A stretch of 63,874 nt of DNA, filler included, from Basidiobolus ranarum (Eukaryota): assembly GCA_040143965.1 (NCBI GenBank). It is 3 parts of 3 records of this genome, joined end to end, with 100 filler letters (N's around TTAATTAATTAA, not from the genome) between each part and the next. Parts side by side here need not be neighbours in the genome. Positions count along the whole stretch, not along the records: positions 1 to 21,299 come from JASJQH010007085.1; 2 more parts are not named here. One strand, given 5' to 3'. Below are positions 6,944 to 63,765 of the stretch, one piece after another (position 1 is the first letter of the stretch; each line of letters begins with the position of its first letter). The notes under the pieces are model-generated. The model was not told the DNA's origin and searched no databases. It was given only the letters and a program-made list of their open reading frames with translations. A program made the position numbers and the translations under genes.

Positions 6944-7047
6944 GCATATCTTGATCTATTTCACCAAGAAGTCTGTCTTGCAGCTTTCCTAGAAATACTG
7001 TCAGATTATTACACAAATAAATTAGTCCAAATTATAGAGGTACTTAC

Positions 7048-7328
7048 TGTTAAAATTATTTGGGAGAAATATTGATCTGGCCTGGATTTGAATCTGGGAC
7101 CTCCTTTACTCTAGCAAGGTGCTCTAACTACTGAGCTACCAGTCCTTGTATGCTACTCCTATATTGCTAGGGACCCTTAACCTAGTCTGTTATTGTATGG
7201 TACTTTGGCATTTCTGCTTTACAAGCAATTGATTGGCCTTAGACTTTGCATTCAGATGCAGTCACCATACTCCATATTTTCCTCTTTGGGAATGCCTGCT
7301 TGTATCACAAGTCACCAGACTTTCAACA
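7048..7328. mobile_element. 281-bp solo LTR containing a tRNA-derived sequence
   Basis: TGTTAAAA...TTTCAACA ends and exact 5-bp TSD CTTAC (7043-7047 and 7329-7333). The empty site is visible in CMC copy 1 (about 1960-2000), which has a single GTAAG/CTTAC. Confidence 0.85.
7073..7145 (-). pseudogene. tRNA-like sequence (73 nt, anticodon position reads AGA) inside the LTR
   Basis: GGACTGG TA GCTC AGTAGTTA GAGC A CCTTG CTAGAGT AAAGG AGGTC CCAGA TTCAAAT CCAGG CCAGATC A. Canonical arm spacing, perfect D stem, A box and decayed B box; a few mismatches in the acceptor, anticodon and T stems. Confidence 0.8.
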
Positions 7329-9689
7329 CTTACTCTATGTCCATGGTTTGAGCTTTGTTGCTTTTATTGTGCTCAAACAATGCAAAAACCCAAGAGCACA
7401 TTGAAAAGAGCCCCCTTTTGGAAGGTTACTATACTCAGCAGTCTCCATAACCCAATGATTTACATCCTTCACTGATTTTGCTGTTACATTATTAATCAGA
7501 TTAGCATATGGCAATACTGACAATTTCACACAGAGCATCATTTCACCACAAGTGTGCTCCATTAGAACTCCCAGAATGTATAACAAGGGCCTAGAATCTC
7601 TAAGCATTGTGATAGATGTGGCAGGGAATGTATTGAATACTGGCAGAGATTCAGTCTATCTTCTTTAAACCTGTAATAAAGTTTTTCATCTCCAATTACA
7701 AAATCTTTGCACAGTTGCTGTATCAGCCTGGGATCTGCCAATGTGAGTTGATACCATAAGAATATGTTAACAAAGTTGACAAACAACTCCCAATGTTGCC
7801 AATACTTATCAGGAGGAAATCTTTACAAGATTCCACTTGATTATATACAAATCCAATACTTCCAGTCTTTACATTTGAATAAATGCCTAGAGGAGTGGAT
7901 ATTGATGGGAGTCCTGCTAAGATATGATAGTATCTTGATGATTTTAAGCATTTTCCCAATCAATTCAAGCTTTGCTTGTATTTTGAATGGCTCATTCATA
8001 TTGAATTTTCAGCTATATAGCTGAGTAAGTAGTATTGGAATGTTGCTGAAAGGTAAGTGCATAGTGCCTTATGGGAAGCTCTGGCTCTAACTGATCCCCT
8101 TTAGCAATATAATCTTAGGCTTATGGCTAATACCAAGTTTAATGTTGGACTGACTATTTGGTGAATTGATATTATTGATCATGCTGAAATATTCACTCAT
8201 CTGAACCCCATTAGATAAGCATTCAAATTCCACAATCAAAGGCTCCAAGAAGCAATCTATAAGTTCTAGTGACTTAGGTCCAGATATGAAGAATAGTATC
8301 AAAATAGTATGACTCCTATACCAATTCAAAGGAGGCTGATTTAAGTTAATTAAAGTTATTGGCCACAAGTCTTTGCACAGTATATCAGTTTAGCAAGAAA
8401 CCATCAGGAGCCAATGCAAATGCATGATAATATATGTTATCAAAGAAACCTTGACTTTTCAGACTCTGGTAGTGATATCCATTAAGTATGTCAGTAATAC
8501 CATCAGCTTTGTGGTGGGTACTAGGTATTGAATCAATAATCTACATTGGGGTGATTGTATCAAAACTTTAAGATGGGGAATCAATGTTATGTAAGCCAAA
8601 TATGAATGATATTTACCTGATTCAATGATTGCCAATTGTGTGCAAACAGTACATGACATCAGGTTTTTCAGATCACCAGTGAAAGCCAAATAACCATTTG
8701 GACATGAAGGAAGTTTAATTACTGAAGAATTATTAGTCATACAATTGACAAGTATTTTCCATTTGTTCCAGGTCTTTGGCAAAAGTGTAAGAAAATCAAT
8801 AAACATCTGGTTGCTAAGATTGGATTGAAATCTCAGCTCTTGAATAATCAAAGCTGCTTCCTTTAAAACAAGTGTTATGAGTGGACTCATGCTTGCCAAC
8901 AACAAAGAGTCTGTAACTAAACCATTGTCTTCTTCTTCAACTACTGATATACTACCATCAGTCCTGGAATAACTGAGTTCAACATCTAGCAGCATGTTCT
9001 CAAAGCTGTCTGAGCTTAGTGGTTTGACCAAAGTTGCATTTCTATATCCATCATTCTGGTCATATTACTGTGGTAACTCTTTAGTATCTCAACTTTTGGC
9101 AGTGTTACCAAAACTTTGAGGCAAAGTATAGTCAGTGGACTCAGTGGGCAAAATTAAAGTCAATTTTGTGCACTTATTACTGTTGATATTCACTAGGCTC
9201 TGTGCAGCTGGTGGCTTTGTAAAGTGGCCATGTTTGTGATTATTTTTCTATGAAGCCTTCAGCTTTTATAGCACAAGAGTTTGTGACTATAATAGCAGGG
9301 CTTCTTGAAATATTTGTGTTGCAGCATCAGAAGGATATTGTGGAAAAAAGAACACCTACTATGTGAGGGTGGTATTTTAGGTATAGCACATCAATATCAT
9401 CAGTTGCTTCTGAGATGGTGTTACAGATGAGTCATCACAGGATTTACAAGATACTTTTGGTAATGGATGGCAATTTTGGCTTATTATAAGCTGTTTCTCA
9501 TCAAATTCATCATCAATAATGAATTATGTTGGGGATATGCTTTTTAGTGAGAAATAAAGAAGGTGTAATTTCCAGCAAAATAAAGCAGATCAGGCATCCT
9601 TAGAAGCCATAAGATGACCAACAGGCATCAATAATGGAGCCTCCAATACAAAATCAATCATCTTCAAATATGGCAAATATCACGCTATT

Positions 9690-11989: not shown

Positions 11990-12137
11990 AACTTAATTAC
12001 CTTCTCATTTTGGGTCTCAAACAGCCTATAGGCCTTAGATCCATTACAGTAGCCAGGAAATATACATTTACTACGTTGGGCTTTAATTTAGAACATTTTG
12101 AAGCTGGAATAAGGCAACATGCCCTGCAACCAATACA
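11990..12137 (-). mobile_element. Copia family A integrase fragment (downstream half of a split copy)
   Basis: Minus strand encodes SKCIFPGYCNGSKAYRLF, matching RKCIFLGYCNGSRAYRLF at about 18208-18262. Confidence 0.8.
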
Positions 12138-14165
12138 GGTTGCCCACTAAACAAACTCTTAGGACCAGATGGCATCCTAACATGGGTACACCATTTAAAT
12201 ACTTCTTCTCATCCATCGTTTCCCCCGTAACAATTATCTCCGACTCATCACCTAAAAGTTCACATACATTAACATGCTTAGTAAAAGACCTAAATAATCC
12301 CCTGTCAACAGCAGATTTAGAAATAATAATGCCATCCTCCTGATTATATCCCATGTATGACTTTATCATCACAACCAAATTAACCCTGTTGGGTTGCTCC
12401 TCCATCCCCAATAATTTATACACCAACGTATCAACCAATGGCACCTGGGCATATTCCAAAAAATTTATATCCCCAGAAGTTACTATAGAAGGAACATAAA
12501 TTTGCATACTTTGTTTTATTGTTGCAGAAGCAAAAACATTACAAGCTGACTGGTTGTGATTAGCATAAAGAACCATAGATGGAGGAATACCCAACATGAC
12601 TAATGGATGAATCTCCATAGGAGTATACATCTTATGTCTCCTGTGATACCCTATGTCACCCAACATAATCTGAGATTGCTCATCTGGATCCACAAACTCT
12701 ATCTTGCCACTTTCCAAAAGTTTATCCCACAGAAGTTTATCCAACTCTTTCCAATCTATTGCCACCCCCAAAAGCCTAAACAAAGGTCTCACAAATCTTC
12801 CAGAAGATATTTTAACGTAAATAATTCTTGGGATTGGTTTGCAATATGACACAGAAATCATAAGATGAATACATTTGAGTTTGTTTCTAAGAAATCTGAA
12901 ATTGCCACCATAAAATCCTACAATGTATCCATCAAAAAGTACAGAATGTTTTAAGTCACAATTATCATAAGATAAATTATTTTTTAACCAATTCTGTGCC
13001 TCAAAAACTTTTTCTTCAGGAATGTTCAAAAGCAAACATGTCATGGCAAGATGTTTGATAATACCAATGCTTTTTCCTTCGGGGGTTTCACACAAACAAA
13101 CATATCCCAACTGGCTGGGATGAATAGCTTGCATATGAATATTTGAAGTGTTTTTGTCACAAGGTACAATAATTTTGTGGACCATAGAGACTTCATCTAT
13201 AACAGATTTATGTGAAACAAAGTTGACCATTTTGGAATATTTTTTTCCATGAATAATTTGTTGACCTTCTTTAAGCATAATAAAGAGTTCATCATACACA
13301 AAGGTTTGCAGACGATTTTCTATATCAGATACCTTAATGGTGCGATTTAAAATCTGATCCAAAAGAATATTCAAAGCCTTCCCAATTTTGTTTCCATAAT
13401 CATCTTGGTCCATAGGCAGGAAGATATCCATGGCAGTCATAAGAGCTGTATATGATAAGAGGGCAAGTGTGTATACAACATTCTCCTTATTCTGTGATGT
13501 GAAATGCTTGGATTCTAATATTTTTCATTCTTTGGGGGTAATATTATTTTCTGATTCTGTCATAGAGGCTAAGAATACAGTTGAGAAAGTATTCACATGA
13601 GATTTGTTGGCAATCAGAAAAGCAAAAACTTTGTATATTTTACCAAAGTCATAACCTAAGTTATTCATGACTCAATAAACAGACATATGTTTGATTCCAT
13701 TAAGATCTTTGTGAGTTGATGAAACATCTCGATAAAGATCAACAGAATTTTTGATGCAGACCCTTAATGGTAGCAAGGATCCCATGAACCTAGTTTTGCA
13801 ATAAACAACATTTTCATCCTTGGAAATATAGGGGATAAAAATATTTTGTAATTCTTGAATCAGAGGGACTTGTTCTATGCCATTGATGATTTAACAACCC
13901 TTGTTGTTGACAAGAGAGAGTTTACAAATCATTTTGCCATTACTGTGTTTGTAATGTCCTTCATAAGTTTTACATTTAATTAATGCATCAACGTAATCTA
14001 TTTTTGATGGTATTTCATATGATTTATTATTAAGAGGAAAGGGTTATTTGGATTTGGTTACTATAACCCTAATACTTTTAATTGGTATAATTGTTGGAAT
14101 TACTATAAGATTACAGCATATTTCTATATGCAAAAAGGTGGTTGTAATTCAGCAAAATGTTGCAT
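12138..14165 (-). pseudogene. Intronless, compact RNA polymerase second-largest subunit (RPB2/beta-like), N-terminal part only; probable viral or virus-like origin
   Basis: Ordered RPB2 motifs: KG(*)IINGIEQVPLIQE, DQDDYGNK, IHPSQLGYVCLCETPEG..GIIKHLA, SGRFVRPLF, IEFVDPDE, EIHP..MLG..NHNQSA.N, YAQVPLV, VNLVVMIKSYMGYNQEDGIIISKSAVDRGLFRS. A 450-codon open frame plus an upstream part with a few stops; candidate ATG at 14165. Confidence 0.88.
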
Positions 14166-15832: not shown

Positions 15833-16182
15833 TGTTGAAATTAGGTAAATAGCAACCCATTATTTAGTAATTAGCTTATTCATATACTGACAATTCAGCA
15901 CTCAATTCTCTATTCAAGAATGTGTGTTTATTGTTCTAATTGATAGAAATATCAATTAGAGCACTTTTACCATTTTCCCTATTTTCTCAAAATCTCTCCA
16001 AATCACTTCAAATTTTCACCCATATTTAACAGGTTTTTTGTTATGATCTAAGCACATCCAATAGTCCTATTTAACAGTAAACTATAAGTAGGACATATTC
16101 AATTTTAATAAAACTTAAGTGTCTAATTCACAAATCCAAATCTTGTCCAAAACACTTCCAAGTCCCCCAAACATCTTCATCA
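15833..16182 (+). repeat. Copia family A 5' LTR followed by a putative PBS (GGTTTGGAGCCC, 16183-16194)
   Basis: TG...CA ends; direct repeat of 20132-20483; the PBS resembles the GGTTATGGGCCC type used by copia elements. Confidence 0.9.
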
Positions 16183-19100
16183 GGTTTGGAGCCCAAAGCT
16201 AGCTGTTAAAGAAATGTCTATTAGTACTATGACCAATGTTTTTGCATCCACAGAGAAGTTTGATGGTGAAGACTTTTACTTTTGGAAGTTCAAGACACAA
16301 ATGGTACTAGAGGACAAGGACCTGTGGGGATTTGTTACAGGAGAAGAAATAGCACCAAAGGGACCACCAGAAGCTATCCTTGCCTTTCACAAGAAGCAGA
16401 GAAAAGCACTCTCTACACTTTGTCTACATCTCAGATATTCTCAATTGAGGAACATTCAATCAGCCAAAAATGTCCAAAATGCTTGGAAAACACTTGAGGG
16501 ACTATATGAGACTAAAAGCTGGGCTAACAGGCTATAACTTAAGCAAGAATTATTTTCAATTCAGAAGAATTCTGATGATTCTATGTTTAAGCATAAATAT
16601 TGGATAAGGGCTATGGCAGATCTGCTCTCATCCAAAGGAGCACCTCTAAATGAAGATGACCTAGTCATGTCACTACCTGGGAGCCTGCGGGATGAGCTTG
16701 GCAACCTTATATTTGCCCTAGAATCAAGATCAGAGCCATCAACAATGGAATATATTGGTGCAAGGCTTTAGAATGAAGAATTATGGAGATCTAATTCTCA
16801 GCAAAATAATGCAGAACAGGCACTTTTGAAGCTATAAAACATCCAACAGGCTTCAATAATGGTGCTCCCAAAGGGAAATCAACCATCTGCAAGTATTGCA
16901 AGAAACCAGGCTATGTTATCAAAGATTGCAGAAAAAGGATTTTTGCCAAAAAGCTACAATTAGAACAAGCAAATGAAGGAAGCATGGATAGAGATCATCT
17001 ATTTGTGTCAGTCCTATCAGTAACCCTTAAAGAAGACTCAGAAACATGGTATATTGATTCAGGAGCTTCCCAGCATATGTCAAACAGCAAAGATTTGTTT
17101 TTCAGCTTAAAACCAATCCAAACAAGGAAAGTCTACTTAGGTGATGACTATGCACTAGATGCAGTTGGTAAAGGCACCATTGTACTAAATTTAGACCAAA
17201 ATACAGCTACACCTTCTGCAAAATTGGGTGACATACTCTATGTATAAAATGTAGACAAGAATATACTCTCAGTAAGCCAAGCAACAACTCAAGGACTAAG
17301 TTTTGTGTTCAGTAAAGCTGGATGCACTATCACAGATCAGGATGATACTAAATTAGCCACTGGGATCAAAACTCAAAACTTATACTAGCTAGAAATCAAC
17401 AAATTGCATTCTGAGCATGCAAACTTGGCCAAAACCAGTGAAATTAGCTGTTAAACCTGGCATAAAAGATTAGGCCACATTGGGGAACAAAAACTCACCC
17501 AAATAATCCAAAACCAGCTTGTTTTAGGCTTAGGAATTGGAAATATCTCTACATTGGATCAGTGTCAAGGTTGCATATATATAATATCACAAACAGCCAT
17601 TCTCAAGCTCTGGAAAGGTCATATCCACTCAGAATTTTGCCCTGATTTATTCTGACCTATGCAGGCCCATGAACAATGTCTGACTTGGTGGGAAAAGGTG
17701 TTTTATGACCTGTATTGATGACAAAACAAGAAATACTTGGGTATTCTTTCTCAAATCAAAATCTGGAGTCTTAGCTACATTCAAGCACTACCAAGCAATG
17801 GTAAAGAAAGAATCAGCACAAGAATAAGGGTACTAAGGAATGATCAAGATGGAGAAGACTGCTCTAAAGACTCAGCTAGTTTTTGCTCTAAACATGGAAT
17901 TAAGCAAAAAACTACTGTACCTTATACTCCACAGTAAAATGGAGTTGCAGAACATGCTAATCAGACTATAGTGGAGATGGCAAGATCAATGGTACATGAT
18001 TAAAAGATGGATTACCAATATTGCACTGAATCTATCTCCACTGCAGTCTATCTCAAAAACAGATGCCCACCAAGATTGCTATCAATTTCTACTCCATTTG
18101 AAGCCCTATATGGATCAAACCCAAGTGTGGATCATCTCAGGATCTTTGGTTGCACAACATATGGCCTATTTCCAGCTCAAAAACACTCCAATTTGGAACC
18201 TAAAAGCAGAAAATGCATATTTCTTGGCTACTGTAATGGATCTAGGGCTTACAGACTGTTTGATATCAAAAATCAGAAGTTAATCAAGAGCAGAGAAGCA
18301 ATTTTTGATGAACAAGCAAATTTTTCACTTAAAGTCACAGTTCTTGAACCAGTAAACACAATCAGTACTATTCAGGAAGTGTCTGGCAGAATTCCAACAG
18401 TATCTGAGCCATATTCAACCAAAACTCCTGTCCCAATTACATCAATTGATGATTCAGGACCCAGAAGATCATAGTGAAGGAAAAATAGGCCTGGAAACTG
18501 GTGGAACACTTCAAATGATGAAGTATATGCTAATGTAGTATCCTGCAACAAGCCACAGACTCTAGATAATGCTCTGGAGTGTCCAGAATCAAAAATATGG
18601 AAAAAAGCAATGTCAGATGAGTTTTCTTCACTTCAGGACAATAAAACATGGGTATCAAGTACTCTTTCATCAGGCAGAAAGCAAATAGGTTCTAAGTGGG
18701 TCTACAAAGTTAAAAACCAATCTGATGGAGACATAGAAAGGTACAAAACAAGATTAGTTGCAAAAGGCTATTCCCAGACTCCAGGAGTTGATTTAATGAA
18801 GCTTTTGCTCAAGTCACTTAGTTTAGCTCTATTAGTCCAATCCTGACACTCTCGGTTGTCCATAACCTTGACATACATTATATGGATGTAAATACAGCCC
18901 TTCTGAATGGAAATCTAGAAGAAGAGATCTATATGGAGAAACCAGATGGATTTGTTGACCCAAAACATCCTGTTATGGTCAGTAAACTGCAAAAGTTGCT
19001 CTATGGACTCAAGTAAGTACCCATGGCTTGGTACAACCAGATAGATACCAAGTTGGAATTACTGGAATTCCAAAAATGCACAGCAATCACAGTATTTACA

Positions 19101-20131
19101 TCAAAACAACCGGAAATAGAATACTTATCTTAGCACTACACTTGGATGACTTGATCATAGCTACAAATGATCTAGAATCTCTTAATCAGACAAAAAGCAG
19201 CTTATCAAACCAATTTCAGATGACTAATATGGGTAAATTAAGTCATTTTCTAGGAGTCCAAATCAAGAGAGATAAACCCAATCAGAAAATCATGCTGAAT
19301 CAGGCTAGATACATCCTGGATATCCAAAAACACTTTAACATGGAGCAATGCAATCCTGTGTCAACACAATGAATCTTAATGTGAAATTAATAAATTTCAT
19401 CCAAATTTGGCCCAATATAACTTAAATCAAAGCCAGGAGTCCCCTTAACAATCCATGAGGGGTAGTTTAATGCATACAATTGTTGGAACATGTCCAGACA
19501 TTGCTGTGGCAGTGGGAACTGTCAGCCAATATTTCAAAAATCCAGGATCTGAGCACAAAGCTGCAGTATAACAAATATTCAGGTGCTTGAGAGGAACTGT
19601 AGATCTGGTTCTGGAATACTCTGCCACTCCTGATGCACAAAACTTTGAAGGCTACAGTGATGCAGACTGGTGAAGAATCCTCAATGATCAAAGATCAACA
19701 ACTAGAATTACTTTTCTCAATGGTAATGGAGTCATAACTTGAAATAGTAAGAAGCAACCAACCATAGCACTTTCCACTAGAGAAGCAGAGTATATGGCTG
19801 CCTCCACTATTTCACCAGAAGCTATGTGGTTAAGAAAGTTATTTACAGACTTAGGATACATGCAAAACTGTGCTATTACTGTATTTGAAGACAATCAAAG
19901 TTGTATTTCATTAGCTAAAAACCCAATATTTCATGCTAGAACAAAACATATAGCTATTAGGAATCATTTTGTTGGAGAAGCAATAGAGAATAATATATCT
20001 GAACTGGTCTATTGCCCTACTGAGGAAATGATAGTTGACTTCTTAACCTAACCTTTAGCTAAAGCACAATTTGAATTATTGAGATATAAGTTAGGCTTAA
20101 GAGAAATACAAAATAATTAGTTGGGTGGGAA

Positions 20132-20483
20132 TGTCAAAATTAGGTAAATAGCAACTCATTATTTAGTAGTTAGTTTATTCATATTCTGATTATTTAGCAC
20201 TCAATTCTGTTATTCAACAACGTGTGTTTGTTGCTCTAATTGATAGGAATATCAATTATATCACTTTTACCAATTTTCACTATTTTCTCAAAACTTCTCC
20301 AAATCACCTCAAACTTTCACCCATGCTTAACAGGCATGTTTGTTATGATCTAAGCATGTCCAATAGTCCTATTTCATAGTAAACTATAAATAGGACATAT
20401 TGAATTCAATAAAACTTAAGTGTCCAATTCACAAATCCAAATCTTGTCCAAAACACTTCCAAATCCCCTAAACACTTTTATCA
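20132..20483 (+). repeat. Copia family A 3' LTR preceded by a polypurine tract (GGGTGGGAA)
   Basis: TGTCAAAATTAGG...TTTTATCA; direct repeat of the 5' LTR. Confidence 0.9.
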
Positions 20484-21299: not shown

Positions 21300-21399
21300 N
21301 NNNNNNNNNNNNNNNNNNNNNNNNNNNNNNNNNNNNNNNNNNNTTAATTAATTAANNNNNNNNNNNNNNNNNNNNNNNNNNNNNNNNNNNNNNNNNNNN
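21300..21399. other. Assembly gap/spacer (N44-TTAATTAATTAA-N44)
   Basis: Symmetric N runs around a 12-mer that gives stop codons in all frames. Confidence 0.97.
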
Positions 21400-22220
21400 A
21401 ACCAGGTACACCAGTTGGAAGAGTGCTAAATTTGGATGTTTATCCAACACCTGGCACCTCTCAACAAGCCAAAACACCAGCAAATAAAACTCATGGCTCT
21501 CCAACCTCAATTGGTACTTAACAAAGTGTTGAAATTAGCCCCAAACTTAAAGGCAAGCAAAAAGCTTCACACACACTGCAAAGCATCCTCAGTAGTGTTA
21601 CACTACAAGGACATACAAAAATAGTCAAAGTGCTTGAGAAGTATTTTCAAAAGTATGAAGGAAAAAATGCAGTGCAAGTATGCAGAAAGTGGCTTCAGAA
21701 GAAGAACATTCAACTTGACATTCAGTCTGGTGTTGACCATGCAGATATCTGGGAAGAACTTAATACAGAGTAGCACAATATTGCAGGGTATCTGCCAGAT
21801 AGCTGGAAGAATGTTGATTCAGCAATGTTAATACAATGGTGGGCTTTGATGGAGATATAGATACAAACTTGTGTTGGGTATGAGCCAAACCTTGGGTATG
21901 CAGAACTCTATAAAGATATTCAGGAGAATATATCAAAGAGACTAGGGATTTTGAAGGCAACAAATTAGCATTCAAGTGGTAATTGTGTAAAATTTGAGTT
22001 ATGTTTTTTGCACATATGTTGATCCATAGTTCTCTGAGATTGTAGCCCATCATATGCAACTATTTTGCAAGATCTTGAAATTTCACTCATGAAACTGAAA
22101 AAATTGATTAAAATCAAATCTAAGTTGACAATTTTATGATGGTAAGTAAATGGTCAATCCCAAATGGATTAAAATTGCGACAGTTTTCCCACAATAACAA
22201 TCCTCAAATTTCTGTTAGGG
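21400..22220 (-). mobile_element. CMC/EnSpm transposon, copy 4: terminal segment with accessory gene remnant, abutting a truncated copia 5' LTR
   Basis: Closely similar to 6124-6943 and ends at the same TGTTAGGG (22213-22220). Confidence 0.85.
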
Positions 22221-25200
22221 TATCATGGGTTGCTTCTAATACTCAAAGTCTACCCCCATTATGTCAAGATTCCCAAAAGGTGATTACTAATATTCTAACA
22301 TTCAATGGGGAAGATTTCCGTAAATGGAAATTTAAGATGCAACTTGTGGTAGAAGGGAAACATGTCTGGGAAGTAGTTCAACCAGATGAAGAAGAAGAAG
22401 CTTCTGAAGAAGAGAGTGCAGATTCTGACACTGAAACAAAGAAGCCAACATGTAAAGAACCCAGGGCAGTTTTCAAAGAAAAAGATAGATTGGCATTTAG
22501 GGAAATATGTCTAAGACTGGGATCACAACAACTTATTCTAGTCAAAGATGCTGACTCTGCCAAGAATGAATGGGCAATCCTAGTGGAACATCATGAGCAA
22601 AAAGGGCTTGCTCACTTGATGATGCTACAAAGAAAATCCTTAAACTCTTGTATGTCCGAGGTTTCAGATATTATGACATATATAAATGGTGTCAAGAAGC
22701 TTGCCCACCAGCTGGAGTCAGTGAATTGAGAAGTACCTGAAATAGATATAACTCTGACCATAATCAATGATCTCCCTGAATCATATTCAGCCCTTGTACT
22801 CACTTTGGAAGCAATAGGGGATAAGCTTACTCATAATGCATCACTAGAGGAAATAGAACCTCTGGACATCATGGTAGCTGGAAGCAACAAACTGGTTGAA
22901 TATGGAATGGAAAAGGCCACACTTGACTTACAAATAAGTAAAACCAAAAGTGTAATGGTAACCTTGGAAGATGTCTTATATATTCCATCACTTACAACAA
23001 ATCTGTTTTCAATTGGAGCAATTGAAAGGAAACATTATGATGTCAAATTCAGCCAAGGAAAAGCAACCATATACAAAGCAAAGTACTTGATAGTAGCAAC
23101 TGGAACAAGAATTGGGAATCTATATTGCCTGGATATTGCACCAATAACTGAGACTGTGTCTAACTTTGCAACATTTACTTCCAGAAACTTGTTGAGTTGG
23201 CATCAGTGCTTAAGTCATCTGAACTATAATAGTGTGAAACTATTATATTAAAATAGCCTATGTTCTGGAATGAATCTTAAGCACTCAGATATCACTAAAT
23301 GAGAAAGCTGTAATCAAGGGATAAACACCAGAAAACCATTTCCAAAGGAAAGAGCTAGCAAAGCCAAAGATTTATTGGATCTTATCCATACAGACTTATG
23401 TGGCCCAATGCAAACTCCAACACCATGTAAGCAACAATATTTACTCATCTTTATTGATGATAAATCTCACTTCACAGTTTCATATCTTCTGTCAAGCAAA
23501 GGAGAAGTGTTTCAATATTTCAAGATATATGAAGCAATGGTGACAACCATAACAGGAAGAAAAAACAAATACCTATGCAGTGATTGTGGAACTGAATTTA
23601 GCAATGAAGCCATGACTAGCTTTTGCCAAGAAAAGGGAATTCAGCAGCAATTTACTATTTCACATAGTGCAGAACAAAATGGAGTTGCAGAAAGAATAAA
23701 TAGGACTTTAGTAGAGAAAGCACATACAATGCTGATTAATTCAGATCTGCCAAGATCTATTGGGGTGTAAGCTATTTTAACAGCTACATATCTCCAAAAT
23801 AGAAGTCAAACATGTAGCAACCATAACTCTCAAACTCCTATTGAAATCTGGACTGGAAACTAGCCTAATCTGAATCACCTCAGAACATTTGGATCAATAG
23901 TATTTGCTCATATTCCTAAGCCTCAGCATAGGAAATTGGACAAAAAGGCAATTGAATGTATCCTCTTAGGAAATCAGAACAAAGGCTACCATCTCCAAAT
24001 TGCTGGCACAAATCAAATCATCAACTCCAGAGATACTATATTCATTGTAGAAAATCTCAAATTTTATTATCAAGGGGATTTTACTTTGGCTGAAAATCAA
24101 TATCTCAATAACTCAAATTTGGAGTTAATGAGTTCTGAAACCAATCTTGAGCTAACAAGCACTGAAACCAACTTATAAAATGAAACATTGGAAATAGATA
24201 CTGGAATTAGGCCAAATTTGGAATCTCAAGCTATCTTTCAACAATATCCAAATTTAGAAATTTATCACATCTGGGACAAGTTCTAAACATCAGCCACCAA
24301 TGAATATATGACAAAGCTCAAATCATTACCAATCCCTGTGGTGAATATTCCTAGCAGAAAACCAACAAGCAATAATCCTGTCTCAAACTTCACTACAAGC
24401 ACTGAAATCAAGGAGAACAAACTATTATATGTTATTCTACAATCAAGCAGCTATACAAGTAGTGAAACATTAGGCAGCACTGGAAATGCACCAATTCATA
24501 CCAGAAAACCTGATAATTACTCTGAGGATAGTGATAATTTGGTACCAGCTTCTGGAAATCAGCATATCATCTCTGTCAAAGAAAAATATGGTAATCAGAA
24601 AAAGAAATTTTTCCAGCCAATCAGAAATCAGGAAGTTGGGCTCAGAAACAAGGCATTAATTTTCTGACCAATCAAATGCCTGAGAAATATCCCACTTTCA
24701 ATTTGGCTGATATTCAATGCAATCAATTCTTGGAAGTATCAAATCAATCACAACAAGTATTCAATCAATCGCAAAATTCAGGCAATCAGGTCTCAGAAAA
24801 CCTATCAAATGGAAAGCAGAAACATCCTGTAAGTGAAACATCTGACCATTCTACTGAGGACTTTGGATGTCTCAAATCAGAGCATGAAATCAACAGTTTC
24901 AATTCAGAAAAAGGGTGGAGTCTATCTACACATATAGCATTTTCTGAGCCACAAAATTGGACACAAGCTCTGAAATCTGATGAAGCAACAGAATGGAGAA
25001 AAGCCACTGACAATGAAATTCCCTCCCTAATCAAGAACAACCCATGGTTCCTTGTGGACTTATCTATAGGAAGAAAAACTGTTGTTAATAGATGGGTGCT
25101 GAAACTTAAACTTAACTCAGATGGATCTATCAACTGGTACAAAGCAAGATTAGTAGTAAAAGGCTATGCTCAGAAGTATGTCATTGACTATGATGAAACA

Positions 25201-26849
25201 TTTTCTCCCATTGCTAAGTTTATCTCAATCAGAGTAACCCTAGCCATTGCTACCTACCAAGGAATGATGATTGAACAAATGGATGTCAAAACAGCATTTC
25301 TTAATGGAGAAATTGATGAAGATATATACATGGATCAACCAGAGGGATATATTGCAAAATGAAAAGAGCATCAAGTATGCAAACTACAGAGAAGTCTATA
25401 TGGTCTGAAATAGGCTCCTCATGCATGGAATACCAAAATCAATCAGATTTTCATGAAACATCTTTTCCATTATATCAAAGTTGATCACTGCATATATTTC
25501 AAGACCATCAAAGCCACCAAAGTTATAGTTGCTCTCTCTGTTGATGATATCATAATAGTTAGTTATTGCCCAACTCTGATGAAACAAACTAAGACCTGTA
25601 GTTTGAAGTGCAAGATCTTGGATCACTAGCATATTGTACTTGAATGCAGATACATCAAAATTCCACTATTGGAACACTCTGTATTACACATGAAAATTAT
25701 ATTGGAGATGTTTTAAACCTATTCACCAAGTCACAATGTGAAACAGCTTCAAATCTACTATGTATGCTGAAACTCACTAAGGATATGCAACCAAAGACCT
25801 CTGAAGATATTGAAACCTTGAAACATATTCTTTACCATAGTACAGTTGGAAGTCTCATATATGCAACAACTGGTACTAGGCCTGATATTGCTAAAGCAGT
25901 AAGCATAGTAAGCAAATATATGGAAATTCCTGCAATGCAACATTGGATAGCTGTGAAACAGATAATATGCTATCTAAAAGGAACAATACATCATTGAATT
26001 CAATTTGGTAAGCAGTACAACATGTCACTTATTTTGGAAGAATATGCTGCTGCAGACTGGGCTAACAATACAGAAGACCATAAATCCAGGACTGGATATG
26101 TGTTTAAGCTTGCAGGTGGCCTAATAAGCAGGATTAGCAAGAAACTACAAACTGTTGCATTATCAACTACAGAAGCAGAATATATGGTATGCACTATGGC
26201 TGTTCAAGGAGCTATATGGCTAAGGAGTCTTTGCAAGGAACTAGGATATATTCAAGTTAATCCTACCCCAATATATATCAAGATAATATTAGTTGAATTC
26301 AAATGACCAAAAATCCTGAGCATCACTCAAGGATGAAACACATTGACATAAGACATCACCTTATACAAGAGAAAGTTCAACACAAAGAAGTAAACTTTAT
26401 TTATTGTAATACTGAAAACATGCTTGCAGATGTACTAACAAAACCACTCAAAACTTCAAGCTTTGAGAAGTTAAGAGCAGGAGGAGGCATTAGTGAATAT
26501 AAGCGCAATGCTGAATAAGAATTAAGGGAAGGTGTTGGATAATTGATCTTTATTCAACATCATAGTTAACTTTAGTTATGATACATATATCAGAAACAGA
26601 AAGCAAAGTTTCTATAGCCCATATTTTCTAAATAGAAATATCTCTATAACTATATGACAAATATGTATTATTACCCTCACTTATCTATTATATCTTATTA
26701 CACAAACTCCCAAATATCTCAAACAATTGATTTACTCTTCTTCTATATAAGTCACCTTATACTCCTAAGATTAAAGTAACTAAAGCACACTATCATAAGT
26801 TGCTTCTAATACCCAGAGTCTGCCCCCATTATGTCAAGATCCTCCAACA
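22221..26849 (+). mobile_element. Second Ty1/copia family (C), degenerate, with truncated 5' LTR and a gag/PR deletion
   Basis: FNGEDFRKWKFKM gag, DLIHTDLCGPM and EQNGVAERINRTL integrase, WYKARLVVKGYAQ and QMDVKTAFLNG RT, ALSTTEAEY and KHIDIRHH RNase H. Bases 22221-22278 match the end of the 3' LTR. Confidence 0.92.
26533..26849 (+). repeat. Copia family C 3' LTR
   Basis: TGTTGGA...TCCAACA inverted ends; preceded by the purine tract AAGGGAAGG. Confidence 0.88.
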
Positions 26850-26878: not shown

Positions 26879-27223
26879 TGTCAAAATTAGCATTGCCTAA
26901 GCATCTACATAGCCATATATAGCCTAGTACTTAGTTATCTTAGATATCACTAAGATATTATTCATTATTCTCTATCAAAATTTTCTTAAAATATTTTTAC
27001 CTACCCAGAAGTTCTCAGATCAGCAGGTTTTCAAACTTGTGCCAGAAGCCCAAACTTTGCGCTCTTGTTCCTTGGACCTTCCTTCGCACTTTCTACACAT
27101 TAGCTTGTTTACATCTTGACAAAACTATAAGTGTCAACTTTCTACTCAATAAATCTATAAGTGAAAACAACCAATTCCACTAATTCTTGAAACCACTTCT
27201 GCAAGGCTGCAAGTACTTTAACA
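26879..27223 (+). repeat. LTR of family B, probably a 3' LTR remnant
   Basis: TGTCAAAATTAGCATTGCC...TACTTTAACA; homologous to the solo LTRs at 47856, 48573 and 61284; purine-rich AGGAGAG just upstream. Confidence 0.85.
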
Positions 27224-32250: not shown

Positions 32251-34455
32251 TGCATGTATAAAGTGTAAGCAACAGTACTCCATATATTGGAAGCTCCTTG
32301 TTACTATTGCCACAATACCCTTGTAAAGTTAAATTTTAAGATTTCTGATTAGTCTTTTTACTATCAATATGTCTATACAATCATTTTATAGTGAGAAAGC
32401 TCCTTGTATCTCTGCAAATATGGAGGTAAATATTCAGCTAAAGTAATATAGAGTGAAATAAGTCTCCATCACTAAACTTTGTGAGACTAAACTTAGTTTA
32501 TGCATGCAAACCCTCACTACCAATTTTAAGATAACCTGTGCTTTTCAATAATGAGCTGCATATATAGAATATCTCATCTAATAAAATATATATAGCAAAA
32601 TCTGGCACTATGGCAAGAGAAAGGTTTCTAATTAGTGATATGGGAAAATTCACAGTAAAAGCTTCAAGAAGTAAACATGTGCAAGTTAGAGGACTAACTG
32701 ATTGTTTTGAAGTACAAGAGTAAGTACGTTCATAATGAAAAGTTTGGAGTTAAAGTGCTATGGGTCATCAGTGAATATTGCAAACAATATATCCTATAAT
32801 TGGATAATGGCCTCAGTAATTATCTTTTGGGTTCTAAACAATAACAAAAATCCTTACAGCATTGGTGAATTTATATACTTAACACTATTTCAGGCTACCA
32901 TGCTGACTGAGATTGTAACTAGCATAGGTAGAATGTTTGACCAACCTTGTCTGTGTATACAACACTATACCTGTGCATTACCATCACCAGTGTTTTTTTA
33001 GATGATGTTACAGCTAAACCTGGCATGGGCTTAGATGTTGATTCAGGCAGGAAAAGCAAATATATGAATATACAAAAGTCCAGTAGTAGTATGGTTCATA
33101 CTTTGATAGAGGCAATAAAGAGGGGGCACTAACAACATGCAGCTACTGACTATCCATCACTGCTTGTGCCATCCTGCATATTTTTGTTGAAATGTTTGCT
33201 GTACTAGTTGTGTCTTGACATCAAATATATGCTCTATTTTCCTCAGTCTTTAGGTTGCTCAAGTGTTAATGGTAAGTTATTCCCTATCTATGCAATTCTT
33301 AGTAATTGTAGTTGTTGATTAGTCTTTTTCATTTGTTGACTTTGCTTTATGAATCTCCCATATTGATTGCTCCTTGGTATTGTACCCCTCATTTTTGACC
33401 AGTGGTCTCTTACACTTCAAAGACTTTGCATTATATGATTGCTACACTAGCGGCTTCTTTGCATCACCTTCTTTGGCTTTGGCTGGTAGTTTACAGGTCT
33501 TACTTAACTCTGTTCTTAAGTACTTTAGAAGTGCTCCTGCAATTATCATCCATCTTATATTAGACCTGTTCCATTGGACCAGGTCAGATTGTGCTGCTCA
33601 ATCCAGCCTGCTAGTACACCATCTGGCACAATCTGTCAATTATCATGGCTGGGTCCTATAACACTTGATTGGACACTGTAAGGAACAATATGGCACTATC
33701 CCACCACAATCAGACACGATGATTTTTTTGGAGATATCATGCCAGCCCATACCAAGTTACCCAATTTAGTATTGCCGAATTACAATTTGGGTAACTGACA
33801 AAGTAAGTTCATCCCCTAGTTTGTAACTTACAAATTACTGAATGTGTAACAACAAACAGTTTATACTGTAACTTACCCAATCAAATGTATAACCGAGACA
33901 TTCACATGCTTTTAGGCCAATCAATTGTCCCTCACTAACACAGTATCCTGATTTTCAATTGGGCACAGCAGCTCCTGCATTACAAAACACCAGTAGTTTT
34001 GGCACACCAGTGACAAATCACAGCACTTGATGGATCAATCTGCAGTATGATAGTAGTGATCAGGATTGCTTGATTCATCATTTTTAGATTGGCAAATTAT
34101 TTATTCAATCATGTAAGCTTCTAATTGGGTGAAAATGTGCACAGATTGAGCCATATCAAGCCAATATGGCTGCGCAAGCTTTTTATTGACAGACATTTTT
34201 CATTTGATTGTAGTGAAATTGCTGGTATTAATAGGCTATCATTGAGTTTTTTGATATATGACAATTTCATGCTATCAGTGTTTCATAAACACATAGGCAA
34301 TCATGATCTAACTAAAGCAGTTTATGCTATATTTAACTGCAATCCAGATTGATTTTGCATGATGTGCTAAACAGTAAAGATAGGATAATGTAAGTATTAA
34401 CAAGAGTATTCAGCAGTTGCCTAGGTTTGAAGCAATACATGGTGATTTGCCACTG

Positions 34456-41470: not shown

Positions 41471-41848
41471 CACAAAGTTGCTTGTAAATGAACATATCAG
41501 CCATAAGTAGTCAACAATGTAAGAGTCAGCATGATTGCCATATCCTTATTGCAGTCTTTGAAGCCATCCACAATGGTTGTTGATCTGTTTGTGACAAAGA
41601 TTATTGGCTGCAAAATTCATAAACAAAATGCACACTCACTCTTAACCATTGGCTAAGGTAGCAACAATCCTAGACTTGATGAAATGGAATGGGCATTTTG
41701 AGCAACATATTTAATTAATTTCAACTTGTTGAGTCTTCTTTAAAATTTTTGATTTAAGCAATCTGCTACTAACATCAGCATGATTTGGTATTTCTGTATG
41801 CTATCACATATATATAAATTATGCTTAAATATCTGAACTTTCATCATT

Positions 41849-42588
41849 AGACTTGTTCCATTGGACCAGGTCAGATTGTGCTGCTCAATCCAGCCTGCTA
41901 GTACACCATCTGGCGCGATCTGTCAATTACCATGGCTGGGTCCTATAACACTTGATCAGACACTATAAGGAACAATATGGCACTATCCCACCACAATCAA
42001 ACACGATGATTTTTTTGGAGATATCGTGCCAGCCCATACCAAGTTACCCAATTTAGTATTGCCAAATTACAATTTGGGTAACTGACAAAGTAAGTTCATC
42101 CCCTAGTTTGTAACTTACAAATTACTGAATGTGTAACAATAAACAATTTATACTGTAACTTACCCAATCAAATGTATAACCGAGACATTCACATGTTTTT
42201 AGGCCAATCATTTGTCCCTCACTAACACAGTATCCTGATTTTCAATTGGGCACAACAGCTCCTGCATTACGAAACACCAGTAGATTTGGCACACTGGTGA
42301 CAAATCCCAGCACTCAATGATGGATAAATCTGCAGTATGATAGTAGTGATCAGGATCGCTTGATTCATCATTTTTAGATCAGCAAATTATTTATTCAATC
42401 ATGTAAGCTTCTAATTGGGTGAAAATGTGAACGGATTGAGCCATATTGAGCCAATACGGCTGCTCAAGCTTTTTATTGACAGACATTTTTCATTTGATTG
42501 TAGTGAAATCGCTTGTATTAATAGGCTATCATTGATTTTTTTGATATATGACGATTTCACGCTATCAGTGTTTCATAAACACATAGGC
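41849..42588 (+). mobile_element. Second copy of the Pangu-like element, left arm, cut by the gap
   Basis: Closely similar to 33562-34298; again preceded by ATT (41846-41848); retains more CpGs. Confidence 0.93.
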
Positions 42589-42688
42589 NNNNNNNNNNNN
42601 NNNNNNNNNNNNNNNNNNNNNNNNNNNNNNNNTTAATTAATTAANNNNNNNNNNNNNNNNNNNNNNNNNNNNNNNNNNNNNNNNNNNN
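42589..42688. other. Assembly gap/spacer (N44-TTAATTAATTAA-N44)
   Basis: Same construct as at 21300. Confidence 0.97.
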
Positions 42689-46342: not shown

Positions 46343-47855
46343 AGGGTGGATCTCTCTTGATAATCACCTTCAATCGGCATTTTACCCTCACTGTACTTGT
46401 TGGTCTGTATTATTTTAATCTACTCTCTCCCTTCCCTCCCATCAAATCCATGGGTTGGAAATCTCCGAAAACTTGCACTCTCGCTTCCCCTACACCTTAG
46501 TATTATGGTCTCTCTGGTCGTATTTCCATACACTCTCTTAATATTTGCCAGTGAGAAAGAAACCACTAGTTTAACCTCTATAATTTTGTCCTATCTACGA
46601 CTTTCCCATCCATCTTAACCACATTTTCTACATTAAACCTAACGAAAAATATTCCATCTGAAATGAATGCATGAATAGTGAAAGATACAATGGAGATATA
46701 GTCACACCAGATTCACACAGCATTGGAACACATCTCAACTCTTGATCACGGTACATCTCAAGGAGGTGCTGTATCCAAATCCCGCATCTAACCATCTGGT
46801 TTCACTCTAGAACCTTGATAGTACTCCAGATCTCTCGATGGTTGTAGAGGGTACAACAGAAGGGATTCGATGGAACGCTCACCTCTACCGTCACTCATTA
46901 ATATTTACTTTAATCGCATTAAAGCTACACCATATTGGGGGGGGAAGATGTAAATAGAAATGAAGTTGGTGACGTTTTTCACTATCCATTGGTTTAGCCA
47001 CTTGGTCTATGTTGATAATTTGTTCCCATAATGATCCATGAATATTGATAAATATTCACCCACACCAAAAATGGTATCCCCTTGATTTGAACCGTTCACT
47101 GGTGTACGGTCTTAAAGGATACTTTAAATTGGACCACTCGTGGTAGGATATGAAATGTTTGGGACTCAATCACAACTCGGGCTAGTTTCAAGTGTCGGTA
47201 TCTGGAGAGGTATCCCAATGTCTTCACCCCAATTCTAACTTTAGATCTAGTACCCTGACAATAGCTGTTTCAACTGGTCATACTCGGGTTGTGTCAGTGT
47301 GAAGGATGTAAAACTAACTAAAATTTAGAGTCACATTAGTATTTATACTTAAGCTTACTTCACGTCATCCATCCTATATCTACTCTTTAGAAATCAAATC
47401 GTACTAAATTTTAAACATGGGGAATATGTGTCTCTCTCACACAGTACAATCCTATCAATAGGTGTAACAGTGATACTCTTTCAATGGGCCCAACTGATTC
47501 TTATCGAGATGGATTATTTTAGTGGGTCAGGAATAGGAGAGTAATTCAACCAATTATGGACGCCTCATCCATTCTGTAGTACGGATACACAAAGCTACCC
47601 AAATAAAAGTAAAAACCCAAATGTTACAACTAATTCGGTTTGGCTCATATGGAATGTAAATTATCCACAACGATGAGGAATACTAATTATTGAACTTCCT
47701 CAGCTCTGTATATTACATGGACACTGATTAGTAGGTGAATATCCTATTTCCAAACTACAATATAGTAATACAACTATATGGATGAAATAAAAGGAGCCAA
47801 GGCCAAATAGACTATTGTACAGCACTTCGATTCAACACAAACAGGCGAAACTATC

Positions 47856-48150
47856 TGTTGGAAGTGGTGTGGAGAACTAGAAGAATTGGCTGTTTTCACT
47901 TATTGATTAATTGAGTAGGAAGTAGACACTTGTAGTTTTATCAAGAGACAAGCAAGCAGACATGTAGAATTTGTTAGGGATAGTACCAGGAACATGTGTA
48001 CAAAGTTTGGGGCCTCTGGGATAAGTTTAAAAAAATCTATATATCTTGATAACTCTTGAGAATAGTGGGTATATCTTAGTGAAATATGGAGTAACTAAAT
48101 ACTAAGCTATATATGCCTATTTAGATGCTTAGGCTATGCTAGTTGCAACA
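47856..48150 (-). mobile_element. Solo LTR, family B, short variant
   Basis: TGTTG...CAACA ends; near-TSD CTATC/CTAGC; reverse-complement homology to 48573-48900. Confidence 0.8.
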
Positions 48151-48572: not shown

Positions 48573-48921
48573 TGTCGAAATTAGCATTCCCTAAGCACCA
48601 ATATAGTCCTATATAGCTTAGTATTTCGTTATCTTATATTTCACCAAGATATTACCCATTATTCTTATGAGGAATTTACTTAGAATATTGACACCTACTT
48701 AAAGTTCTCAGGTGTATAGATTTTTTAAACTTGTGCTAGAAGCCCCAAACTTTGCACACATATTTCTGAGACCTTCCTTAACGCATTCTACATGTTAGTT
48801 TGTTTACATCTTGACAAAACTATAAATATCAACTTTCTACTTAATAAGTTAATATGTGAAAACCACCAACTTCTCTATTTTCCCCAAACCACTTCCAACA
48901 GGCTCGCAAAATACTTTAACA
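48573..48921 (+). mobile_element. Solo LTR, family B
   Basis: TGTCGAAA...TTTAACA with exact TSD ATAGT (48568-48572 and 48922-48926). Confidence 0.92.
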
Positions 48922-61283: not shown

Positions 61284-61612
61284 TGTTAAAGTATTTGGGA
61301 GCCTGTTGGAAGTGGTTTGGAGAATTAGAGAATTTGGTGGTTTTCACTTATTGATTTATTGAGTATTCAGTTGACATTTATAGTTTTGTCAAGATGTAAA
61401 CAAACTAATGTGTAGAATGTGTTAAGGAAGGTCCCAGGAACATGTGTGCAGAGTTTGGGGCTTCTAGCACAAGTTATCAAAATCCATATATCTTCAAACT
61501 TCTAAGTAAACTCCGATATCGAATAATGGGTAATATCTTGGTTCAATAGAAGATAACTAAATACTAAGCTATATATGACTATATAGGTGTTTAGGCAATG
61601 CTAATTTCAACC
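61284..61612 (-). mobile_element. Solo LTR, family B
   Basis: Reverse-complement homology to 48573-48921; exact TSD AAGTT (61279-61283 and 61613-61617); one terminal base mutated. Confidence 0.9.

Positions 61613-62198: not shown

Positions 62199-63765
<1,567 letters not shown>

Follow-up and report, generated by a model that had tools for sequence, protein, structure and literature searches.

A solo LTR with a tRNA-derived module in Basidiobolus ranarum: a probable Helenus-type element with LTR ends resembling those of a resident Copia family

What is a sequence with the arm spacing of a tRNA doing inside an apparent LTR? The question is raised by a 281-bp unit at positions 7048-7328 of a 63,874-nt stretch of DNA from Basidiobolus ranarum (assembly GCA_040143965.1; hereinafter the window, that is, the whole stretch analysed), which a sequence-only reading had interpreted as a solo LTR of a family that co-opted a full-length tRNA-like gene as an internal Pol III promoter, a chromatin boundary or a self-supplied primer. 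The window consists of three joined pieces, with identical linkers of the form N44-TTAATTAATTAA-N44 at positions 21300-21399 and 42589-42688, so that no feature should be interpreted as running through a joint.

Insertion of the 281-bp unit

The unit starts with TG (7048-7049) and ends with CA (7327-7328), i.e., it has LTR-type termini, which extend into a short terminal inverted repeat, TGTT/AACA. On the minus strand, which we take as the sense strand, it reads from TGTTGAAA at the 5' end to TTTTAACA at the 3' end. Two copies of CTTAC, at 7043-7047 on the left and at 7329-7333 on the right, flank the unit and are recognizable both in the sequence itself and in the pairwise alignment with a paralogous copy of the host transposon. 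The two host copies each contain a Pfam Transposase_21 domain (tnp2, CACTA/CMC type), at 715-1080 on the plus strand and at 8090-8389 on the minus strand, respectively. When the flanks of the unit were compared with the window using BLAST, the left flank (6944-7047) matched positions 2076-1974 at 90.4%, and the right flank (7328-8190) matched positions 1979-1117 at 85.3%. The target site in the paralog, at 1974-1979, is empty: pairwise alignment places an unbroken GGTACTTAC opposite the CTTAC, 281 bp and CTTAC of the filled copy. Because the paralog retains a single intact site, the 281 bp must have arrived in one event that was accompanied by a 5-bp duplication, and this duplication together with the TG...CA termini shows that the entry was an integrase-type insertion. 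The earlier description of the unit, as a TG...CA element with a perfect 5-bp target duplication and an empty site in a sister CMC copy, is thus borne out in each of these respects.

There is no second copy of the unit in the window: apart from the self match, BLAST returned 17 matches, all of at most 21 nt and with E-values of at least 0.13. The choice of the minus strand as the sense strand is based on the strand of the tRNA-like sequence, the layout of the published Helenus LTRs and the Copia-like ends, all of which are considered below. In this orientation, the unit opens with a U3-like upstream part of 183 nt (7146-7328, minus strand), for which no similarity was found in the window, in 41 metagenome loci or in the 345-bp Copia LTR discussed below.

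The tRNA-derived module and its published counterparts

The 73 nt at 7145-7073 on the minus strand match the Rfam tRNA model RF00005 along its entire length (model positions 1-71 of 71), scoring 39.8 bits (gathering score, 29; E-value for the whole window, 6.4e-5); no other tRNA match appears in the window when the cutoff is relaxed to E<=10. The module begins at nt 184 of the 281, so that 183 nt precede it and 25 nt come after. In the Rfam alignment, box A is TAGCTCAGTAG (7138-7127, minus strand) and box B is GATTCAAATCC (7094-7084, minus strand), the latter one change away from GGTTC, with G53 changed to A. The anticodon loop CUAGAGU puts AGA in the anticodon position, and the variable region is 5 nt long, as in class I tRNAs. 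The D stem is intact; 4 of the 21 stem pairs are non-standard (3-70, 31-39, 51-63 and 53-61), including two of the five pairs of the T stem. The tail that follows the module (7048-7072, minus strand) comprises 25 nt: ATATTTCTCCCAAATAATTTTAACA lies directly 3' of the module, where a T3 run is found, the only T4 run is located at 7055-7052, 18-21 nt past the module end and 4 nt short of the 3' terminus, and the terminal tetranucleotide is AACA. All these local features, namely, an A box with a decayed B box, an AGA anticodon combined with a short variable loop, and a T4 run about 18 nt downstream, had been correctly picked out by the sequence-only reading.

The designation of the module as a full-length tRNA-like gene fares less well. 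ARAGORN finds no tRNA in the window, and the module RNA folds no better than shuffled sequences (z = +0.42; equal or better folding in 124 of 200 shuffles), with the T arm unformed. Given the ARAGORN miss, the 4 broken pairs out of 21 and the shuffle-level fold, "full-length tRNA-like" holds for the spacing, as reflected in the alignment to RF00005 positions 1-71, but "gene" is too strong. The module is clearly derived from a tRNA and retains the correct spacing but is not a working tRNA gene.

LTRs of this type have been described in Helenus (TRIMp3), a group of miniature LTR retrotransposons with a tRNA-derived part in the LTR (Kojima 2024, Biology 13:119; PMC10886601). Helenus elements, which are represented by 113 families in rust fungi (Pucciniales) and by some families in Agaricomycetes, animals (six phyla) and Selaginella, consist of two LTRs and a short internal part with a PBS and a PPT; the screen that identified them selected for a total length below about 1 kb, the longest family being 1,263 bp, and the LTRs reach 323 bp (PMC10886601). 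The target duplications are 5 bp in fungi and plants and 4 bp in animals, under an overall criterion of 4-6 bp; many families persist as solo LTRs with 5-bp duplications, and the fungal elements are probably mobilised by Copia elements (PMC10886601). The box B sequence GGTTC is described as conserved, and Pol III promoter activity has been proposed from the conservation of boxes A and B, with the explicit statement that it is experimentally unvalidated; the anticodon and the isotype mostly disagree, and the tRNA-like parts were accordingly judged non-functional (PMC10886601). In the first part of Data S1 of the same paper, all 26 complete rust Helenus LTR consensuses, examined by eye, start with TGT and carry the tRNA-like part near the 3' end, followed by at least four T.

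The 281-bp LTR resembles the Helenus LTRs in layout, length and ends. It contains a tRNA-derived module with boxes A and B (39.8 bits against the threshold of 29) that is located near the 3' end, 25 nt from it, and is followed by T runs (T3 and T4); it has TGTT...AACA-type ends and, as in the fungal and plant forms, a 5-bp duplication, with CTTAC on both sides and an empty site in the paralog; it is a solo LTR, it has a link to Copia, and its module is not a working tRNA. The layout on the minus strand is TGTTGAAA, 175 nt, the 73-nt module and the 25-nt T-rich tail ending with AACA, and the length of 281 bp falls inside the published range of Helenus LTRs (<=323 bp; PMC10886601). Unlike this general layout, the longer motifs of the element that were looked up are not found in any of the published consensuses. 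Among nine motifs of 9-19 nt that were looked up as text in the supplement of PMC10886601, "attttaaca" occurs twice and "gaggtcccag" seven times, both being generic, and the other seven are absent. By eye only, the acceptor and T-arm region resembles the group that includes Helenus-4_PGr, 4_PSt, 12_PHor, 2_MLP and 4_CroRib; in the Helenus-4_PGr group, the anticodon is followed by an additional stretch. At most, the 281-bp element would represent a family absent from the published Helenus set. As for the literature on Helenus or TRIMp3 after 2024, a search yielded, beyond Kojima 2024, only citing papers or unrelated uses of these words, and passages of one citing paper mention Helenus in passing only. 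Of the proposal that an LTR family has co-opted a tRNA, the solo-LTR insertion and the tRNA-derived module stand, and both find their match in the published Helenus, but the claim does not extend to a new kind of element: the kind has already been published, and the present LTR is another example.

Plant Cassandra TRIMs, the only experimentally validated case (PMC10886601), also harbor, within the LTR, a Pol III promoter derived from a small RNA, as is predicted here. Unlike Cassandra, the module in the 281-bp LTR is derived from a tRNA and not from 5S rRNA, and no Rfam match to 5S rRNA, the hallmark of Cassandra, was detected in the window, either at the gathering score or at E<=10.

A metagenome scan with the 21-nt box A word as the query returned 41 loci. 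In all 41, the similarity is confined to the tRNA-like part, with every BLAST match inside element positions 181-263; therefore, there is no member of the 281-bp family among these loci. Several of the metagenome modules (in L001, L010, L041, L022 and L021/L040) share a 5' half of 21-28 nt with the window module: two loci (L010 and L041) have an identical 28-nt 5' half and show about 80% identity over 81 nt, and in a third one (L022), only the 5' half is matched (97% over 34 nt). The anticodons assigned by ARAGORN in the near-identical modules of L010 and L041 differ (GTA vs GGA), so the anticodon evidently is unconstrained, which corresponds to the isotype drift reported for Helenus (PMC10886601). 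In L001 and in L021/L040, similar modules are followed by T-rich tails ending with AACA. In the first of these loci (L001, reverse strand 2348-2589), the module is enclosed in a 242-bp unit, TGTTAAG...TTAACA, with the duplication TCTTC, which likely is a Helenus-type solo LTR of another organism; the scan that detected this unit also picks up pairs that arise by chance, such as a false pair in the window. The module-plus-tail design thus recurs in LTR-like units, and these loci are not copies of the 281-bp family.

Several further loci were recovered in these scans. Those in WLWD01/WLWI01 (e.g., L005, L006, L009, L017 and L036) contain a tRNA-like repeat that is present in multiple copies, preceded by a conserved stretch and followed by a T-rich tail; some of these copies include only the tRNA-like 5' half and lie inside complex repeat arrays. 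Two pairs of metagenome loci with tRNA-like words (L015/L034 and L028/L029) were dropped as complex repeat arrays of another organism. In bacterial and archaeal genome contigs, a 19-nt junction word was found at one locus (63% GC, 19 nt matched only), which was taken as a chance match, and a scan of viral contigs with the 21-nt LTR end produced 0 matches.

LTR ends and the resident Copia elements

Self-comparison of the window reveals four members of an LTR family of about 345 bp: an LTR at 26879-27223 (plus strand), adjoining the 3' side of a degenerate Copia coding region; two solo LTRs, at 48573-48921 (plus strand; duplication ATAGT) and at 61284-61612 (minus strand; duplication AACTT on the minus, that is, sense strand); and a partial copy at 47855-48149, inverted relative to the solo LTR at 48573-48921 and about 400 bp apart from it. 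The Copia coding region (22124-25359) is on the same strand as the adjoining LTR and encompasses gag (starting at 22124), integrase (starting at 23303) and RT (24595-25359). The closest matches of the RT, at about 50-58%, are from plants and Phytophthora, with no close relative. A purine run, GCAGGAGAG, is located just before the LTR at 26879-27223, which fits a 3' LTR. Because of the joint at 21300-21399, this Copia is cut on its 5' side, and the 5' partner of the LTR would lie past that joint.

In the tRNA-sense orientation of the 281-bp LTR, both of its ends are common to the 345-bp family, the shared pattern being TGTTGAAA...CTCCCAAATA-TTTTAACA. The family has TGTTGAAA at the 5' end and CTCCCAAATA(C)TTTAACA at the 3' end; written out in the Copia sense, it begins with TGTTGAAATTAG and ends with CTCCCAAATACTTTAACA, and the 281-bp LTR, in the tRNA sense, begins with TGTTGAAAGTCT and ends with CTCCCAAATAATTTTAACA. 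The first 8 nt, TGTTGAAA, are the same, and over the last 19 nt the two agree at 17 positions; the end of the 281-bp LTR is matched most closely by the final 18 nt of the solo LTR at 61284-61612 (minus strand). When all 19-mers ending with CA on both strands of the window (n = 9,456) were scored against the 345-bp family end, three reached the score of the 281-bp element, namely, this element itself and two copies of the 345-bp family, and the next-best 19-mer scored 2 points lower. Thus, the 345-bp family resembles the 281-bp element in its 5-bp duplications and in the shared 5' and 3' ends but differs from it in that it has no tRNA-like part (Rfam, E<=10) and no alignable interior: alignment over the whole length uncovered no convincing similarity between the interior of the 281-bp LTR and the 345-bp Copia LTR.

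LTR ends are the parts of the element that are recognised by the integrase. Combined with this, the match between the ends supports the minus strand as the sense strand of the 281-bp LTR and also supports a Copia of the 345-bp LTR type as the helper; judging from these sequences, such a Copia likely is the helper of the 281-bp element. The published Helenus families differ in this respect, Copia similarity having been observed only in the internal part and the PBS (PMC10886601). The ends common to the tRNA-bearing LTR and a Copia LTR family are the one new point of this analysis. A separate 19-mer that resembles the LTR end motif, CTCCCAAATATCTCAAACA, is present at 26707-26725 (plus strand), inside the Copia and 154 nt upstream of the 3' LTR.

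Another degenerate Copia, at 15833-20483 (plus strand), was identified by self-comparison through a pair of LTRs of about 350 bp that are 88% identical. It has a PPT-like sequence, GTTGGGTGGGAA, and, directly after the 5' LTR, a PBS-like sequence, GGTTTGGAGCCC, which belongs to the half-tRNA-iMet type; the 5-mers on the two sides of the element are not the same (TAAAT vs GAATA). The PBS-like sequence resembles ggttatgagccc, which opens many of the fungal Helenus internal parts in the first part of Data S1 (PMC10886601); a PBS of the ggttatgagccc type has been assigned to priming by the anticodon region of the initiator tRNA-Met (PMC10886601). Comparison by eye of the module with the PBS of this neighbouring Copia (16184 onward) detected no long complement, and in Helenus, the tRNA-like part shows no complementarity to the PBS, self-priming having been rejected (PMC10886601). 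The proposal that the element supplies its own primer is disfavoured by the published result.

Regarding the source of the DNA, protein matches identify an exon of TGT (queuine tRNA-ribosyltransferase) at 62202-62900 (minus strand). Among the 120 matches listed, the best ones for this fragment, at 66-70%, are from zoopagomycete, entomophthoralean, mucoromycete and chytrid fungi and from animals; none of the 120 (proteins of at least 409 aa) is from Ascomycota or Basidiomycota. In a FastTree analysis of the 233-aa fragment with 58 sequences, which included no Dikarya and was used for topology only, the fragment forms its own branch inside the fungal group, and a fungal origin of the element is compatible with this tree. 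Other features of the window include an open frame of 478 aa at 12091-13524 (minus strand), among Copia fragments, in which domains 3 and 6 of RNA polymerase Rpb2 are recognized. The proteins most similar to it, at 33-39% identity, are about 850-1,000 aa long and include the "RNA polymerase subunit B''" of Linnemannia/Podila, and archaeal RpoB comes next, at about 30%; this is not the housekeeping RPB2, and a plasmid- or virus-like element could be the origin of the frame. The segment 34724-35342 contains internal tandem-like repeats (76-79% identity; offsets of roughly 115-230 bp), and a 740-bp direct repeat with 95% identity is found at 33559-34298 and 41846-42588, the second copy ending at a piece joint.

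Alternative readings and a possible life cycle

We estimate at about 0.8 the probability that the 281-bp unit, known here from one copy, is the solo LTR of an LTR element of the Helenus kind, bearing a tRNA-derived part and mobilised by Copia. The unit could instead be the LTR of an autonomous or a large non-autonomous (LARD-like) LTR retrotransposon, not a miniature one, with an incidental tRNA-derived stretch. The solo LTR is alone in the window, its ends resemble those of the LTR adjoining a Copia coding region, and "not a few" Repbase LTRs have tRNA-like pieces, of which only those in elements of TRIM size were kept in the published survey (PMC10886601); but the layout, with a full-length module near the 3' end and then a T run, is that of the TRIM LTRs in the first part of Data S1, and the window Copia LTR family, which has no tRNA-like part at E<=10, aligns with the unit at the ends only, so that we consider this origin unlikely. 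Still less probable, in our view, is an ordinary LTR that secondarily acquired a tRNA-derived SINE or a tRNA copy, in one copy or a small sub-lineage only. Such an insertion of a SINE into an LTR has been proposed as the origin of these families (PMC10886601), and CAATAT is found, by eye, at the 3' edge of the module as well as upstream of it; however, a 6-nt repeat is expected by chance in AT-rich DNA, the module is not accompanied by a SINE body or tail of its own, and its position and T-rich tail are those of Helenus LTRs in the first part of Data S1 and of the metagenome relatives.

Two other readings take the tRNA-like sequence more literally, and to both we assign a very low probability. 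As a short, non-coding retroelement with tRNA-derived A and B boxes, the unit has something in common with the tRNA-derived SINEs (SINE2), which are moved by LINEs. SINE2 elements have a tRNA head at the 5' end and a LINE-derived or A-rich 3' tail, and the length of their target duplications is variable. Unlike these, the unit carries the module internally, at nt 184 of 281; its tail ends with TTTTAACA and is neither A-rich nor a simple repeat; and it is bounded by TG...CA ends with the TGTT/AACA inverted repeat and by a duplication of exactly 5 bp. A functional tRNA gene carried by the LTR, either tRNA-Ser-AGA or a recoded tRNA, would account for the Rfam score above the threshold and the full arm spacing. 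It is contradicted by the failure of ARAGORN to find it, by the broken pairs (4 of 21) that include the conserved 53-61, by a fold no better than shuffles and by the AGA anticodon in combination with a short class I variable region; the module thus has neither an intact cloverleaf nor an isotype consistent with the anticodon, and most of the Helenus modules are likewise non-functional by isotype disagreement (PMC10886601).

On the Helenus reading, the full element would consist of two such LTRs around a short PBS-to-PPT segment. Through boxes A and B, TFIIIC and Pol III would initiate transcription at the module in the 5' LTR; the transcript would pass the weak T run of that LTR and end at the T run of the 3' LTR, yielding a terminally redundant RNA in which the stretch from the module to the T run would be the repeated R region. 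The Gag, RT and integrase of a Copia element would then copy and insert this RNA in trans, and later recombination between the LTRs would have left the solo copy. Because the T4 run is only 4 nt from the LTR end, U5 on this Pol III model would be reduced to about 4 nt, i.e., almost nil, and because the same T run is present in the 5' LTR, the terminator there would have to be leaky to allow read-through. The loss of G53 from box B and the two broken pairs of the T stem likewise count against the model. The Pol III step, taken on its own, appears less probable than the Helenus reading as a whole. The copy at 7048-7328 itself is probably dead as a promoter and unusable as a tRNA.

In rust genomes, where genes for the expanded tRNA types are predicted by the hundreds, Helenus copies make up most of these predictions (PMC10886601). 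Helenus-type LTRs inflate tRNA gene predictions and scatter possible Pol III promoters through the genome. The choice of the helper has been left open for Helenus (PMC10886601). We tentatively raise the possibility, which we regard as somewhat doubtful, that the element described here is of the Helenus type, comes from a fungal lineage other than the rusts and Agaricomycetes known to have fungal Helenus, and shares integrase-recognised LTR ends with a resident Copia. If true, this would be the first link at the level of LTR ends between a TRIM with a Pol III promoter and an autonomous helper, and the helper would be named directly. The shared LTR ends provide a concrete candidate for the Copia helper; apart from this, the locus is one dead copy that contributes one more family to a group already described.
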